Source of the DNA: an uncultured Staphylococcaceae bacterium
GTDB taxonomy: Bacteria; Bacillota_I; Bacilli_A; ML615J-28; CAG-313
Reading direction: 5' to 3'
Assembly (NCBI GenBank): GCA_964474685.1
Contig: CAYYTE010000003.1
Location: 1-46,527, forward strand
Length of the DNA stretch: 46,527 nt
Shown: one piece after another, positions 95 to 5,195 of the stretch
Numbering within the stretch: the stretch's first letter is position 1
Layout: each line of letters begins with the position of its first letter
Notes under the pieces: generated by a model
Databases searched by the model: none
What the model saw: only the letters and a program-made list of their open reading frames with translations
What the model was told of the DNA's origin: nothing
Program-made: the position numbers and the translations under genes

Positions 95-226
95 AAAAAT
101 ATATCCTTTCATTTTTCGTCAAAATAATGATAGCATATTTTTATGGGTTTTTCAACTTATTAGGTGTTGCACTTGAGTATTTAATTCAGGCTATATTGAA
201 AAAAATATAATAAATTTATATATTTG

Positions 227-255
227 TTGCAATTTTTCTAACGAAATGCTATAAT
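227..255 (+). promoter_or_regulatory. sigma-70-type promoter of the abiEi/abiEii pair
   Basis: TTGCAA (227-232), 17-nt spacer, TATAAT (250-255). The ORF-track ATG at 254 lies inside the -10 box, so ATG 281 is the likely real start. Confidence 0.6.
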
Positions 256-280
256 GTTAGTAGAAAAGGAACAAATTAAT

Positions 281-856
281 ATGAAGAATAAAATTTTATT
301 ACTCGCAAAAAATGGATATATCTTTTCAAAACAATTAAAAGAACAAAATATACCAAGTGTATATATTACAAGAATGGTCAAAGAAGGTAGTATTGTAAAA
401 GTTGCTCCAGGAATTTATATTAAAAATGATGTAATTGAAGACTTTTTTTATATTTACTCAATGCAATATAAGTCAATTGTATATGATGGGCAAACAGCAT
501 TGTATTTAAATAAATTGACAAATAGACAATTCAATGGATATCAAGTAATAGTTCCTTATGGATCTAAAGTTATTAATTATAAGTTTAAGGTTAGGACAAC
601 AAGGAATAAAATATTTTACGATACAGGAATTAGTAATATTGAAACACCTTATGGAAACATTGTAAAATGTTATGATAAGGAAAGATGTATTTGCAATTTG
701 TTTTTATATAATGATTTCGATGAAGAGGAAAAATCATATGCTATTAGAGAATATAAAAACAATTATTTAGATATTAAAAAACTATATGAATATGCAACTA
801 TATTAGGATGCATTGAAGAAATGAAGAATGTTTTTGAGGTAATTATATGGGAATAG
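281..856 (+). CDS. AbiEi-family (type IV TA) antitoxin, wHTH protein
   Basis: N-terminal motif LLLAKNGYIFSKQLKEQNIPSVYITRMVKEGSIVKVAPGIY is typical of the AbiEi_4 wHTH. Size is about 190 aa. AAAGGA lies 10 nt upstream of ATG 281. The stop overlaps the start of the AbiEii-like ORF by 10 nt. Confidence 0.7.
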   Translation: MKNKILLLAKNGYIFSKQLKEQNIPSVYITRMVKEGSIVKVAPGIYIKNDVIEDFFYIYSMQYKSIVYDGQTALYLNKLTNRQFNGYQVIVPYGSKVINYKFKVRTTRNKIFYDTGISNIETPYGNIVKCYDKERCICNLFLYNDFDEEEKSYAIREYKNNYLDIKKLYEYATILGCIEEMKNVFEVIIWE

Positions 857-2229
857 GCAAAACTAATGCAATGGTTAGAAAACTTGCAGAAATAACTAAT
901 ATAGAAACTCAAGTATTATGGGATATGTACTTTTTTGAACATTTCTTATATCGTTTAACACATAGTGGATATGAAAATAATTTTGTTTTTAAAGGAGGTT
1001 TTTTGTTACAAAGCATAATTGGATTTGAAAATAGATCAACGATGGATGTTGATTTAAAAGTGCAAAGCATAGAATTAAGTGATAATATAATAACAAAAAT
1101 ATTTACTGAGATTATAAATATTGATTGTGATGATGGGTTATCTTATAAAATATTAGGAATAGATACTATTGCCAAAGATAAAAGGTATGGTGGCAAATCC
1201 GTTAAAATTTTTGGGCAATATTATAATATAAAAAAAACATTTAATATTGATTTAGCAACTGGCGATGTTGTTACTCCTTTTCCGATTAGACTAAAATATT
1301 ATTCTAAAATAACAGATTTAGAATTTGAAATATTATCTTATTCAAAAGAAACAATATTAGCAGAAAAGTTTGAAACACTAGTTATTAAGGGTACTAATAA
1401 TTCACGTGTCAAAGATATATTAGATATTTATCTATTAGTAAAAAAAGGGTTTGATGAATTTATATTTAATTCTGCATTAATAAATACATTTTACAATAGA
1501 AATACAATTTTAAATAAAGATATTAAAAATGTAGTAAATGATGTTTTAAATTTTAATCGTATTATGCAATTGTATGATTTATATATGAAAAAACATACTT
1601 TCGCACAAAATATATCATTTGATGAATGTGTTAAAGGGATATATAAATTAATTGATTGTATAGAGTTTAATGAACCAATAAAACTATTAACAGATGTAAC
1701 TTTAGTTAGACATGGACAAGATGAACAAGACAAAGTTGGTGGATGGTCTGATAATCATTTAACAAATGAAGGAATTAAAGAAGTAGAAGAATTAATATAT
1801 AGTCTTGATAATGATTATGATTTAATTTTATCTAGTGATTCACTTAGAACTAAAGAAACAACGGAATTAATTAACAAGAAATTAAAAATAGATGTAGTAT
1901 TTTTAGAAACTTTAAGAGAAACAAATAATGGGAGTTTAAAGAATTTAACAAAAGAACAAGCAAAAGAAAAATTTCCTGGCTTATATTTTAACACATTGAA
2001 GATGGATGAAACATATCCTAATGGTGAAAGCCCCTTAATGTTTTATGAAAGAGTTAAAAATAGCTTTTTAGATATTAATAAGAAATATATAGGTAAGAAA
2101 GTATTAATCGTTACTCATGGTGGTGTTATTACTGTGATTATGTGTTTAATTAATGGTTTGATGTATTCAAATTTATTAAAAATTACTCCTAAAACTGGTT
2201 CTAAAATAATGTATTATTCTTGTATGTAA
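847..2229 (+). CDS. AbiEii/DUF1814 nucleotidyltransferase toxin fused to a C-terminal histidine phosphatase (PGAM-like) domain
   Basis: Residues 1 to ~275 carry the NTase motifs FKGGFLLQ...RSTMDVDL (D67, D69), AEKFETL and SRVKDILDIYLL. Residues ~284-460 (nt ~1696-2229) carry VTLVRHGQ (R288-H289), LSSDSLRTKETT, ETLRETNNGSLKNLT and LIVTHGGVI. It is one uninterrupted reading frame. Confidence 0.72.
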   Translation: MGIGKTNAMVRKLAEITNIETQVLWDMYFFEHFLYRLTHSGYENNFVFKGGFLLQSIIGFENRSTMDVDLKVQSIELSDNIITKIFTEIINIDCDDGLSYKILGIDTIAKDKRYGGKSVKIFGQYYNIKKTFNIDLATGDVVTPFPIRLKYYSKITDLEFEILSYSKETILAEKFETLVIKGTNNSRVKDILDIYLLVKKGFDEFIFNSALINTFYNRNTILNKDIKNVVNDVLNFNRIMQLYDLYMKKHTFAQNISFDECVKGIYKLIDCIEFNEPIKLLTDVTLVRHGQDEQDKVGGWSDNHLTNEGIKEVEELIYSLDNDYDLILSSDSLRTKETTELINKKLKIDVVFLETLRETNNGSLKNLTKEQAKEKFPGLYFNTLKMDETYPNGESPLMFYERVKNSFLDINKKYIGKKVLIVTHGGVITVIMCLINGLMYSNLLKITPKTGSKIMYYSCM

Positions 2230-2313
2230 TTATAAAGTTTCGGGTCCCTTCACCTTCACTATTAGAATGTGTTTATTACTGTTTTGATTTGCAGTTCAAA
2301 TATATTTATTCAA

Positions 2314-2340
2314 CTATTTTGGCAAAATAGCTTTTTATTT
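2314..2340 (+). terminator. weak intrinsic terminator candidate downstream of abiEii
   Basis: CTATTTT-ggc-AAAATAG 7-bp AT-rich stem followed by CTTTTTATTT. The stem is weak. Confidence 0.3.
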
Positions 2341-2604
2341 TCGGAAGTAATGTTAAAAAACATATATAGGATTGAAAAAAAAGAAATAAGAATATTGTCT
2401 GTTATTCTAATAAAGAATATTTTGTATCACTCAATTCAAGTATATTTTTTGGCTTTTTAAAGTAGTTGGGGTTTTTCGAAATTCCCCTATAAAGAAGATA
2501 GGGACACCCTTTCAACTTAATAGGTGAATATAAAATTCCAACTTCTTTATATATTCGTAAATTTTTTTTGATAACGTGTTCATTGTTATTTTTTTACTTA
2601 TGTG

Positions 2605-2894: not shown

Positions 2895-3725
2895 ATGAGA
2901 AAGATTTTATTAACAGGGATGTTATTATTTGTAGCCTTAGGTTTGACGAGTTGTAAAAAGATTCAATTTGATGAATCTTCCAATACACTTGTTGTTGGAA
3001 TGGAATGTTGTTATGAACCATATAATTGGACTGAAAATGTTCAATCAAGTACCAATGTAGCTATATCAAATCAAACCGGGCATTATGCGGAAGGGTATGA
3101 TATTGCTATGGCAAAAAGGCTTTGTGAAAGTATGGGGTATAAATTAGAGATACAAGCTTTTAGTTGGGAAGGATTGGTACCAGCTTTATTAACTGGAAAG
3201 ATTGATGCAATAATTGCGGGGATGAGTCCAACGGAAAAAAGAAAAGAAACAATTGCTTTTACAGATGAATATTGGCATTCAGTTGAAGTGCTTCTTGTAA
3301 AAAAAGATGGTGCTTATAGTGATGCAAAGAAGTTTAGTGATTTAGATGGAGCAAAAGTGATAGGACAAAAAGGGACTCTTTATGAGACACTTGCTAACCA
3401 AGTTCATCAAAAGAATTCATCAACAACAGTTATTAATGCTTTAGATACTATGTCTGAAATAATGGTTGCTATGGCAAGCGGTAAAGTTGATATTACCGTT
3501 GTTGAGGAACCGGTTGCTAAAAGTGTTGTTGCTAGTAATTCAAATTACACTTATGTTGTACTAGATGAGAACTTTGATGTGGATGAAAGTGATGTAATGG
3601 TTTCAATTGGACTTCGATTAATTGATACAACATTATGTAATAAACTTAATGAAGCTTTAAAAAAGATTTCTCTTGCAGAAAGAGAAGAGTTAATGCAAAA
3701 GGCGGTTAGTCATAGTGGAAATTAA
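2895..3725 (+). CDS. polar amino-acid ABC transporter substrate-binding lipoprotein
   Basis: AAGGAGA RBS precedes ATG 2895. Lipoprotein signal MRKILLTGMLLFVALGLTSC. PBPb-type motifs (GLVPALLTGKIDAIIAGMSPT). The ORF-track TTG at 2865 lies inside the terminator T-run. Confidence 0.8.
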   Translation: MRKILLTGMLLFVALGLTSCKKIQFDESSNTLVVGMECCYEPYNWTENVQSSTNVAISNQTGHYAEGYDIAMAKRLCESMGYKLEIQAFSWEGLVPALLTGKIDAIIAGMSPTEKRKETIAFTDEYWHSVEVLLVKKDGAYSDAKKFSDLDGAKVIGQKGTLYETLANQVHQKNSSTTVINALDTMSEIMVAMASGKVDITVVEEPVAKSVVASNSNYTYVVLDENFDVDESDVMVSIGLRLIDTTLCNKLNEALKKISLAEREELMQKAVSHSGN

Positions 3726-4452
3726 CTTTTTAGGTTTTTTTAAGAATATTCAAAATATATTTTCAGATTGGTGGCTTACAATCTTAAAAGGAATAGGGGT
3801 TACTTTACTTTTATCAATCATTGGAACGTTGATTGGGCTTCTTATTTCGTTACCATTTGGAATTATGAGAATCAGTAAAACCGAGTCTTATGATACAAAA
3901 ACGTCAAAATTTCTTAAAAGATTTGGAAATTCACTTGTGAAAGCATATGTTACTTTCTTTCGTGGTACTCCGATGATGGTTCAAGCAATGCTTTTCTATT
4001 ATGGTTTTTCTTTACTTGGAGTTAATTGGTCTAGTTTTGTTGCGGCACTCTTTACTGTTTCTTTAAACACTGCCGCATATCTTACGGAGATTATACGTAG
4101 TGGATTACAATCGGTATCGGTGGGACAAAGTGAAGCATATTTAGCACTCGGAATGAAACCACGACAAGGACTTATGAATGTTTTATTTCCTCAGGCTTTA
4201 AAAACATCGATGGCTGCTATTGGTAATGAAATGATTATAAATATAAAAGATACTTCCGTATTCTGTTGTATAGGTGTTATGGACTTATATAATTCTACAA
4301 AAACTGCTGGAAATGATGGATTTCATTATGTTGAAACAATGGCGATTGCTGCAGTAATATATCTTATTCTCACGATGGTTACATCCAAGGTACTACAGAA
4401 AGTTGAATCCAGAATTGGGGCACCAACTAAAGATTTAACAAGTTGTAATTAG
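3715..4452 (+). CDS. polar amino-acid ABC transporter permease (His/Glu/Gln/Arg family)
   Basis: Multi-TM protein with an EAA-loop region, [28 protein letters not shown] start overlaps the stop of the binding-protein gene. Confidence 0.8.
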
Positions 4453-4460
4453 GAGGAGTT

Positions 4461-5195
4461 ATGAATTTAATTTTACAAGCAAAGAATATTTTTAAATCAT
4501 TTTCACAGAATCATCCTGTATTACAAGATATCTCTCTAGAGGTATGTTCCGGTGATGTTATTGCAATTATTGGACCTTCGGGAAGTGGTAAATCTACATT
4601 CTTACGTTCATTAAATGCTTTGACTATTCCTGATAGTGGTGAGGTGTTCTTTCATAATGAGAATATCTTTTTACATCCAAATAAATTTCATATTGTAAGG
4701 CAAAAAATTGGTATGGTGTTTCAGTCATTTAACCTTTTTGATAATTTGAATGTATTAGATAATTGTACATTAGCTTTACGAAAAGTAAATCATCTTAGTA
4801 GACAAGAAGCAAATGTTAAAGCTAAAAATAAATTAAAAGAAGTTGGTATGGATTCTTTTATTAAACAATCGGTTAAAAGTTTGTCCGGTGGACAAAAACA
4901 GCGGGTAGCAATAGCAAGAGCTTTAGCAATGGAACCAGAGGTATTATTATTCGATGAACCTACAAGCGCATTAGATCCGGAGATGGTAGATGAAGTATTA
5001 AATATTATGGCCGATTTAGCAAAAAAAGGAATGACAATGGTTGTAGTTACTCATGAGATGCGTTTTGCAAAAGGGGTATCAAATAAAACCGTGTTTATGG
5101 AAGAAGGTAAAATCGTAGAAAAGGGAGAAACGTCACTCATCTTCTCGAATCCGAAAGAGATTCGAACAAGAGAATTCTTGAAAAATTATATATAA
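4461..5195 (+). CDS. polar amino-acid ABC transporter ATP-binding protein (GlnQ-like)
   Basis: Walker [10 protein letters not shown], signature [15 protein letters not shown], Walker [13 protein letters not shown]-loop VTHEM. GGAGG RBS. Confidence 0.9.

Follow-up and report, generated by a model that had tools for sequence, protein, structure and literature searches.

An AbiE-family toxin–antitoxin cassette whose nucleotidyltransferase toxin carries a histidine phosphatase domain, with a possible role in toxin re-arming

The stretch analyzed here (the window: positions 1 to 46,527 of contig CAYYTE010000003.1, GenBank assembly GCA_964474685.1, from an uncultured Staphylococcaceae bacterium) contains near its left end a two-gene AbiE toxin–antitoxin (TA) cassette, in which the toxin AbiEii, a DUF1814 nucleotidyltransferase (NTase), continues in frame into a complete histidine phosphatase domain of the His_Phos_1 family. 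An earlier note, made from the sequence alone, had proposed this architecture for an AbiEi/AbiEii pair, and the profile and structure tests that we performed all agree with it; the coordinates of the two open reading frames (ORFs), their 10-nt overlap and every motif that the note quoted were found in the sequence. An AbiE-family member with an added intact His_Phos_1 domain on its toxin is not described in the literature that we searched: searches aimed at this combination of domains found no paper, and the key AbiE and MenT papers make no mention of a fused phosphatase, in agreement with the note, which had recognized no built-in phosphatase among described AbiE systems.

AbiE and MenAT are among the most widespread TA and defence modules. 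Work from 2020 to 2026 showed that phosphorylating a Ser/Thr in the active site turns such toxins off, and their reactivation is a gap that the authors state explicitly. A natural family of toxin–phosphatase fusions is comparative-genomic evidence that dephosphorylation matters, and the two-gene cassette makes the reactivation question testable with point mutants (H289A, T65A and D67A/D69A). The reading that we favor, with a probability of roughly 0.45, is that the fused phosphatase removes the phosphate from phospho-T65 and re-arms the toxin within a self-contained AbiE (Type VII) module for TA and abortive infection.

Two domains on one toxin polypeptide

The ORF at 847..2229 encodes a protein of 460 amino acids (aa). 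In its N-terminal half, Pfam recognized PF08843 (AbiEii) at aa 33–261 (E=2e-32; score 113 bits, cut-off 22.5), and the PADLOC AbiEii model matched the 460-aa protein with E=1e-77. The motifs of a pol-beta-type NTase, FKGGFLLQ, RSTMDVDL (containing T65, D67 and D69) and SRVKDILDIYLL, are present. Residues K49, G50, D67, D69, E173, K174, D190 and D193 are conserved in the family, and a further set of conserved NTase positions (D26, F29, F52, K130, F132, N213 and F252) is specific to the fused clade and may mark an interface. A PDB sequence search matched this half to one solved structure, chain B of 9HLO ('AbiGII', 287 aa; E=2.6e-42). Because the alignment runs without gaps through residue 90, RSTMDVDL of the window corresponds residue for residue to RSTVDIDF of 9HLO_B, and T65 is aligned exactly on the T65 phospho-acceptor of AbiEii. 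The window protein thus has the Ser/Thr phospho-acceptor two residues before DxD that is expected of a Type VII toxin, and this column holds a Thr in all AbiEii sequences collected, 16/16 of the fused and 151/151 of the unfused ones. Taken together, the sequence comparisons strongly argue that the N-terminal domain is an intact DUF1814 NTase with a conserved phospho-acceptor and a predicted NTase activity.

In the C-terminal half, Pfam recognized PF00300 (His_Phos_1) at aa 285–449, with E=1e-34 in the whole protein and E=9e-36 when this half was searched alone. The separate profile searches that the earlier note had recommended gave, for each half, the same domain match as the whole protein. 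The motifs VRHG (R288-H289), SSDSLRTKETT (R334), ETLRETNNG (E358) and VTHGGVI (H424) are all present, and in the alignments with 4IJ5 and 1FZT, two matches from the PDB sequence search, R288, H289, R334, E358 and H424 fall on the catalytic motifs. AlphaFold2, run on the family alignment, yielded a mean predicted local distance difference test score (pLDDT) of 93.1 and a predicted template modeling score (pTM) of 0.90 for the whole chain, with pLDDT values of 94–98 across the phosphatase domain and 95–98 across the linker (aa 271–290). Because of the high linker pLDDT and the pTM, the two domains are predicted to form one rigid body rather than being loosely tethered. When the model was compared with the PDB by Foldseek, only the C-terminal domain aligned, with probability 1.0 and target-normalised template modeling (TM) scores of 0.65–0.74 to PhoE, CobC and TTHB049; no two-domain precedent for the fusion was found in the PDB or in the viral structure library BFVD. 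The predicted structure thus displays the alpha/beta PGAM fold of branch-1 histidine phosphatases, and residue set and modeled fold together confirm the C-terminal half as a catalytically complete enzyme of that branch, as far as sequence and prediction can tell. A GGWSD motif following RHG is specific to the phosphatase of the fused clade.

To what extent the fusion occurs elsewhere was examined in a search space of 5.8 billion clustered proteins, from which 120 homologue clusters were listed. Both Pfam domains were present in one polypeptide in 107 of these clusters, so that at least 107 carry the fusion; most members are 455–476 aa long and 35–56% identical, and their source assemblies come from ENA, Logan, NCBI and JGI. 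An independent ENA contig (P0001) encodes a protein identical to that of the window. Across 56 aligned full-length members, T65, D67, D69, K189, D190, D193, R288, H289, R334, E358 and H424 were invariant. We also inspected the neighbors of the fused genes, as the note had suggested: AbiEi lies directly upstream of the fused toxin in 19/19 family loci with readable upstream DNA (the window, 15 further loci and 3 metagenome loci), and in the window and the 15 fused loci first examined the end of the AbiEi alignment falls between −6 and +6 nt relative to the start of the toxin gene. The AbiEi proteins of fused loci are 39–55% identical to that of the window, compared with 25–37% for those of unfused AbiE loci, indicating that antitoxin and fused toxin constitute one co-inherited clade. 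An origin of the fusion by misassembly was ruled out by the number of clusters sharing the architecture together with the linker, which is ordered in the model.

The fused cassette is rare. Full-length fusions numbered 6 among the best 80 of 564 relatives in species-representative genomes and 2 in IMG/VR, whereas 50,697 phage and 72,556 plasmid records contained none. The named hosts are gut or anaerobic Bacilli-type metagenome-assembled genomes (Erysipelotrichaceae, Acholeplasma and 'Bacilli bacterium'). Where fused proteins are named at all, they currently bear only the names 'histidine phosphatase family protein', 'AbiEii/AbiGii toxin family protein' or 'PhoE / nucleotidyltransferase component of viral defense system'; annotation as either a histidine phosphatase or an AbiEii/AbiGii toxin conceals the two-domain architecture.

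A few clusters depart from the common pattern. In P0111 the phosphatase domain has decayed, with loss of RHG and of the second His, and D67 is also lost (D to Y). On short contigs, P0114, P0115 and P0116 carry the same phosphatase module (53–60% identical), cut exactly at the linker and joined to unrelated N-termini, of which one is Cys-rich and looks secreted, one is of unknown type and one is a SAP domain; these three represent either domain shuffling or chimeric assemblies.

The operon and its operator

The gene order is that of AbiE systems, a bicistronic operon with the antitoxin first and overlapping genes, the overlap in the window spanning nt 847–856. The upstream ORF has the make-up of a COG5340-type AbiEi, with an antitoxin domain following an N-terminal winged helix-turn-helix (wHTH). 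It matched PF13338, the AbiEi_4 wHTH family, with E=1e-6, above the Pfam cut-off, and the PADLOC AbiEi model over its full length with E=1e-41; its aa 9–189 aligned with PDB entries 9HLO_A and 6Y8Q with E=3e-23. The start of this ORF is placed at nt 281; an in-frame ATG at nt 254 overlaps the −10 box and is unlikely to be the start.

The earlier note had placed a consensus promoter (TTGCAA-17-TATAAT) upstream of AbiEi. The hexamers are indeed present, but promoter-like hexamer matches are no more frequent in this AT-rich DNA than in shuffled sequence (23 found versus 23.7 expected), and hexamers alone are therefore no evidence for a promoter. The evidence is instead that they lie within a family-conserved inverted-repeat operator. 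The two operator arms, each of 26 nt, are 73% complementary and separated by a 13-nt spacer; the left arm contains TGTTGC and the −35 box, and the right arm contains GGAACA together with the ribosome-binding site (RBS). The same order, TGTTGC at the −35 box, inner arm, −10 box, complementary inner arm and GGAACA at the RBS, recurs in 7/7 further loci of the family with a readable upstream region (L081, L082, L084–L087 and L094), and the inner arms covary across loci (CTAAC/GTTAG, GCC/GGC and GTGCCT/AGGCAC). The outer half-site of the window operator equals that of the experimentally defined AbiEi operator of Streptococcus agalactiae, TGTTGCTTTTA-N27-TAAAAGCAACA, in which TGTTGC likewise overlaps the −35 box (PMC3985639). 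The promoter is thus overlapped by inverted repeats as in AbiE negative autoregulation, and these repeats constitute a putative AbiEi binding site. Just inside the toxin gene, nt 874–888 (GTTAGAAAACTTGCA) are complementary at 14/15 positions to nt 228–242 of the operator left arm (TGCAATTTTTCTAAC); the stretch may serve as an additional AbiEi half-site or may match by chance. The coordinates of the cassette and of its flanking repeats are collected in Table 1.

Table 1. Features of the fused AbiE cassette in the window
Feature	Position	Strand	Basis or detail
Direct repeat, left copy, 17 nt	150..166	+	TTTCAACTTATTAGGTG; brackets cassette
Putative AbiEi operator, imperfect inverted repeat	217..281	+	Arms 217–242 and 256–281; centre at −10 box
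Sigma-70-type promoter	227..255	+	TTGCAA 227–232, 17-nt spacer, TG-extended TATAAT 250–255
abiEi, predicted antitoxin and autorepressor, 191 aa, wHTH and C-terminal domain	281..856	+	RBS AAAGGA 265–270
AbiEii/DUF1814 NTase domain of fusion, aa 1–271	847..1659	+	PF08843, PADLOC, 9HLO_B; T65 at 1039–1041, D67/D69 at 1045–1053
Inter-domain linker, aa 272–283, predicted ordered	1660..1695	+	AlphaFold2 pLDDT
His_Phos_1 domain, aa 284–460, and stop codon	1696..2229	+	PF00300, PDB matches, Foldseek; H289 at 1711–1713, H424 at 2116–2118
Non-coding 3′ tail of cassette, reaching right repeat	2230..2509	+	No ORF with family match; inside repeat-bracketed segment
Direct repeat, right copy	2510..2526	+	TTTCAACTTAATAGGTG; brackets cassette

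Possible roles of the fused phosphatase

The closest characterized relative is the AbiE system of S. agalactiae (PDB 9HLO and 6Y8Q; PMC3985639), which resembles the window operon in its bicistronic overlapping genes, in an AbiEi composed of a wHTH and a C-terminal domain, and in an identical RST-x-D-x-D core with T65 at the same residue number. In that system, AbiEi binds AbiEii and induces auto-phosphorylation at T65, which abolishes NTase activity; a T65A toxin is not neutralisable in vivo; and T65 phosphorylation is reversible, the host PP2C phosphatase SaSTP fully dephosphorylating AbiEii in vitro, while a role for phosphatases in reactivating AbiEii in vivo is stated by the authors to be unexplored (bioRxiv 10.64898/2026.01.19.700257). 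Given this phosphorylation-based neutralisation, the same work reassigned AbiE to Type VII, and the assignment to type IV in the earlier note is outdated. The note had correctly stated that MenT3/TglT is neutralised by phosphorylation (PMC11375011), a principle that now extends to AbiEii. In MenT3 and MenT1 the residues auto-phosphorylated via the antitoxin are the active-site S78 and T39, respectively (PMC11375011, PMC11541572), and the housekeeping phosphatase PstP dephosphorylates MenT3 in vitro; the idea of reactivation by a phosphatase was raised for this pair too (PMC11541572). Like AbiEii, the toxins of MenA3-MenT3 (TakA-TglT) and MenA1-MenT1 of Mycobacterium tuberculosis are DUF1814 NTases acting on tRNA 3′ ends in Type VII systems, but MenAT is actinobacterial, distant in sequence (it was not recovered by the PDB sequence search) and lacks a fused phosphatase. 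S. agalactiae AbiEii differs from the window toxin in length (287 versus 460 aa, with C-terminal His_Phos_1 here) and has at most a separate host enzyme, SaSTP, for its dephosphorylation, whereas the window toxin has a fused domain.

The first steps of the re-arming reading can be read from the sequence or follow strongly from homology: a promoter inside the putative AbiEi operator drives two translationally coupled genes, and AbiEi is predicted to repress its own promoter. The NTase domain would extend tRNA 3′ ends and so stop translation. Binding of AbiEi would cause the NTase to auto-phosphorylate T65 and switch off, as in S. agalactiae AbiEii. The last step is inferred: the C-terminal histidine phosphatase would hydrolyse phospho-T65, either within its own chain or on an adjacent one. 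The toxin would then be held off not by a one-way covalent lock but by a kinase/phosphatase cycle, with AbiEi and nucleoside triphosphate (NTP) needed all the time. Were AbiEi lost, titrated or no longer made, as upon phage infection or loss of the element, stored toxin would be dephosphorylated without any need for host phosphatases, and rapid translation arrest would ensue. For a mobile cassette that passes from host to host, such host-independent firing would be an advantage. It is quite possible, if still short of even odds, that the phosphatase is encoded in cis as an enzyme dedicated to re-arming a toxin that has been neutralised covalently. If re-arming does take place, this would be the first TA system known to carry its own reactivator; Type VII neutralisation would be a dynamic kinase/phosphatase cycle, a dead-man's switch, and not a one-way lock; and unfused AbiE and MenAT would depend on host phosphatases for firing.

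There are precedents for such a scheme. Members of the His_Phos_1 family include the protein phosphatases SixA, PGAM5 and Sts-1. In PFK-2/FBPase-2, a 6-phosphofructo-2-kinase is fused to a His_Phos_1 bisphosphatase that reverses its reaction. That enzyme is alike in placing a phosphate-adding activity and a branch-1 histidine phosphatase on one polypeptide, with a tunable cycle as the outcome, but its substrate is a sugar phosphate and it serves eukaryotic metabolic regulation, not a toxin. Of the three functions that the earlier note had offered for the phosphatase (remodeling of RNA 3′ ends, reversal of an inhibitory phosphorylation and hydrolysis of a nucleotide signal), none is proven and the second is the best supported.

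Several observations weigh against re-arming. First, the nearest relatives of the phosphatase domain are small-molecule or nucleotide phosphatases (CobC, PhoE, PspA and TTHB049). Second, a constitutive cis-phosphatase would oppose the antitoxin, so that an extra assumption is needed, either a futile cycle or shielding of the phosphate by bound AbiEi. Third, the AbiEi loop that reaches into the toxin active site and contacts T65, D85-E86-I87 in S. agalactiae, has the same length in the fused clade but reads N-R/K-Q (N-R-Q in the window), which suggests that the neutralisation mechanism may differ in this clade; a single D85A substitution in S. agalactiae AbiEi did not abolish toxin phosphorylation. 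Fourth, among the genes that directly follow 89 unfused AbiE modules no phosphatase recurs, and a His_Phos hidden Markov model (HMM) scan of ~225 unfused AbiE loci revealed phosphatase neighbors only in L041 and L187, the L041 gene having as its real partner, it appears, an adjacent Nudix gene; the unfused modules thus lend no convergent support. Finally, RHG and H424 are gone from the P0108 lineage (loci L173–L175), which has nevertheless retained AbiEi together with an intact, T65-containing NTase, indicating that phosphatase catalysis is dispensable at least in that lineage. As to the loop, most unfused AbiEi proteins read [DE]-[RK]-x-P at this position, and the unfused sister L020 shares N-R/K-Q with the fused clade; the D-to-N change was therefore rejected as a case of co-evolution specific to the fusion.

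The strongest alternative, which we consider unlikely yet deserving of serious attention, has RNA or nucleotides instead of the toxin as the target of the phosphatase: it would either strip a 3′-phosphate, 2′,3′-cyclic phosphate or 3′-pyrophosphate from tRNA ends, making them extendable by the NTase, or dephosphorylate a nucleotide substrate, product or signal. Consistent with this, the best NCBIfam match of the C-terminal half is CobC, the nucleotide-like alpha-ribazole phosphatase (TIGR03162), followed by the bifunctional RNase H/acid phosphatase NF005567 (E=2e-17), and CobC, PhoE and TTHB049 are the best Foldseek matches. The CobC score, however, is 93–96.5 bits against an equivalog cut-off of 162.9, and NF005567 scored 64 against 326 bits; the phosphohistidine phosphatase SixA (TIGR00249; 22–24 bits against 74.5) and dPGM (TIGR01258, pgm_1; 31–34 bits against 81.7) scored lower still, so that the domain lies below every NCBIfam equivalog cut-off. 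CobC/TTHB049, PhoE and PspA (2P77, 6E4B, 1H2E and 4IJ5) share with it the fold, a length of ~175–205 aa and the RHG/R/E/H set, but they are stand-alone small-molecule phosphatases, and GGWSD is found only in the window clade. The Rv2228c-type RNase H/CobC-like acid phosphatase (NF005567) likewise has a nucleic-acid enzyme N-terminal to His_Phos_1, but its partner is RNase H rather than a DUF1814 NTase and it belongs to no TA module. The phosphatase domain also served as query in an exhaustive search, and the fusion partners that it revealed speak for action on RNA or nucleotides: related domains (30–38% identity) lie inside class-I aminoacyl-tRNA synthetases and one CCA-adding enzyme, a 45%-identical phosphatase domain is fused to NUDIX, and several of these partners are enzymes with tRNA 3′ ends or nucleotides as substrates. 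In 3/89 loci, unfused AbiEii is followed by a NUDIX gene. The synthetase and CCA-enzyme domains are, however, rare single clusters that fall outside the fused clade in a neighbour-joining tree. Moreover, characterised AbiEii and MenT toxins use ordinary 3′-OH CCA ends, no phosphorylated-end substrate having been described, and the nearest stand-alone relatives offer no support through their contexts. If this alternative were true, tRNA-targeting NTase toxins would have an unknown need for end processing or nucleotide dephosphorylation.

These nearest stand-alone phosphatases are ~190 aa long, 42–53% identical to the fused domain and without any AbiE link; the closest ones (P0122, P0124 and L069) reside in unrelated housekeeping contexts that give no clue to a substrate. 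By sequence, the fused phosphatase appears to have been recruited from small stand-alone enzymes of this kind. Recruitment from ordinary phosphatases fits a specificity that arises from tethering and not a dedicated enzyme.

It is improbable that the phosphatase is a second, independent effector that depletes a phosphorylated metabolite after the system has fired, or a product remover that hydrolyses the pyrophosphate released by the NTase and so pulls the reaction forward. The invariance of its catalytic residues would agree with either function, and synthetases, the CCA-adding enzyme and some Nudix enzymes all release pyrophosphate, a common denominator that is our own suggestion. However, to our knowledge neither pyrophosphatase activity nor a role as toxic effector is on record for any branch-1 histidine phosphatase, pyrophosphatase is already abundant in cells, and the P0108 lineage keeps NTase and AbiEi without phosphatase catalysis. 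That the fusion is functionally meaningless, being an assembly chimera, a two-gene read-through or a passenger housekeeping enzyme, is hardly credible: close stand-alone phosphatases do exist and the module in P0114, P0115 and P0116 sits on unrelated N-termini in what may be chimeras, but at least 107 clusters from independent assemblies (ENA, Logan, NCBI and JGI) share the ~460-aa architecture, neither half varies in its catalytic residues, the model shows an ordered linker with high confidence, and the cassette occurs in differing neighbourhoods, including a prophage end.

The survey of related domains also brought to light fusions outside the AbiE family. In P0169, P0216, P0229, P0238 and P0254, His_Phos_1 is inserted in Ile/Leu/Val-type tRNA synthetases at tRNA-synt_1 position ~286, often in tandem, P0238 being from Candidatus Peribacteria; in P0198, it lies inside a PolyA_pol/HD CCA-adding enzyme. 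We know of no description of such insertions in either enzyme class. P0143 (357 aa) is a NUDIX–His_Phos_1 fusion that mirrors the adjacent His_Phos/Nudix gene pair at L041 (5101–6103), which is located just downstream of the unfused AbiE module, and at L081 a NUDIX gene is found two genes downstream.

Genomic setting and mobility of the cassette

The cassette is bracketed by direct repeats that are identical at 16/17 positions; two copies occur in the 46.5-kb window, compared with 0.02 expected from shuffles. It lies between a divergent gene and an amino-acid ATP-binding cassette (ABC) transporter under lysine-riboswitch control, followed by PgsA, RecA, Upp, RecU and RNase Y, genes that place it in the chromosomal core. 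The repeat and these neighbors support the proposal of the earlier note that the cassette was inserted beside core genes. No integrase is encoded inside the repeat-bracketed segment. No empty insertion site was found in public data: the only exact match to the neighbouring transporter protein was on a contig of 981 nt; the repeat with its right flank had no match in a DNA scan of the metagenome collection, and the 17-nt repeat was absent from the 172 other loci searched. Elsewhere in the family, cassettes were found beside an Abi_2 gene, near a Schlafen/AlbA_2 protein and, in one case, at the end of a prophage, with XhlA/holin on one side and two large serine recombinases on the other. Such differing neighbourhoods indicate that the cassette is mobile.

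To the right of the cassette, the lysine riboswitch (RF00168) was detected at 2647–2813 on the + strand (77 bits, E=1e-18), and a terminator-like hairpin at 2844–2862 separates it from the ABC transporter genes at 2895–5195 (SBP_bac_3, permease and ATPase), which probably form a lysine-regulated uptake system. Two genes absent from the window accompany the cassette in the P0088 lineage (L082–L084): a 130-aa DUF4275 gene that begins 10 nt after the fused toxin and, nearby on the opposite strand, a gene of the LigT/2′,5′-RNA-ligase family. Among unfused modules, phage portal genes account for 9/89 of the genes immediately downstream of AbiEii (IMG/VR loci among L095–L172), suggesting that in prophages and phages AbiE modules are often accessory genes located just before the portal gene.

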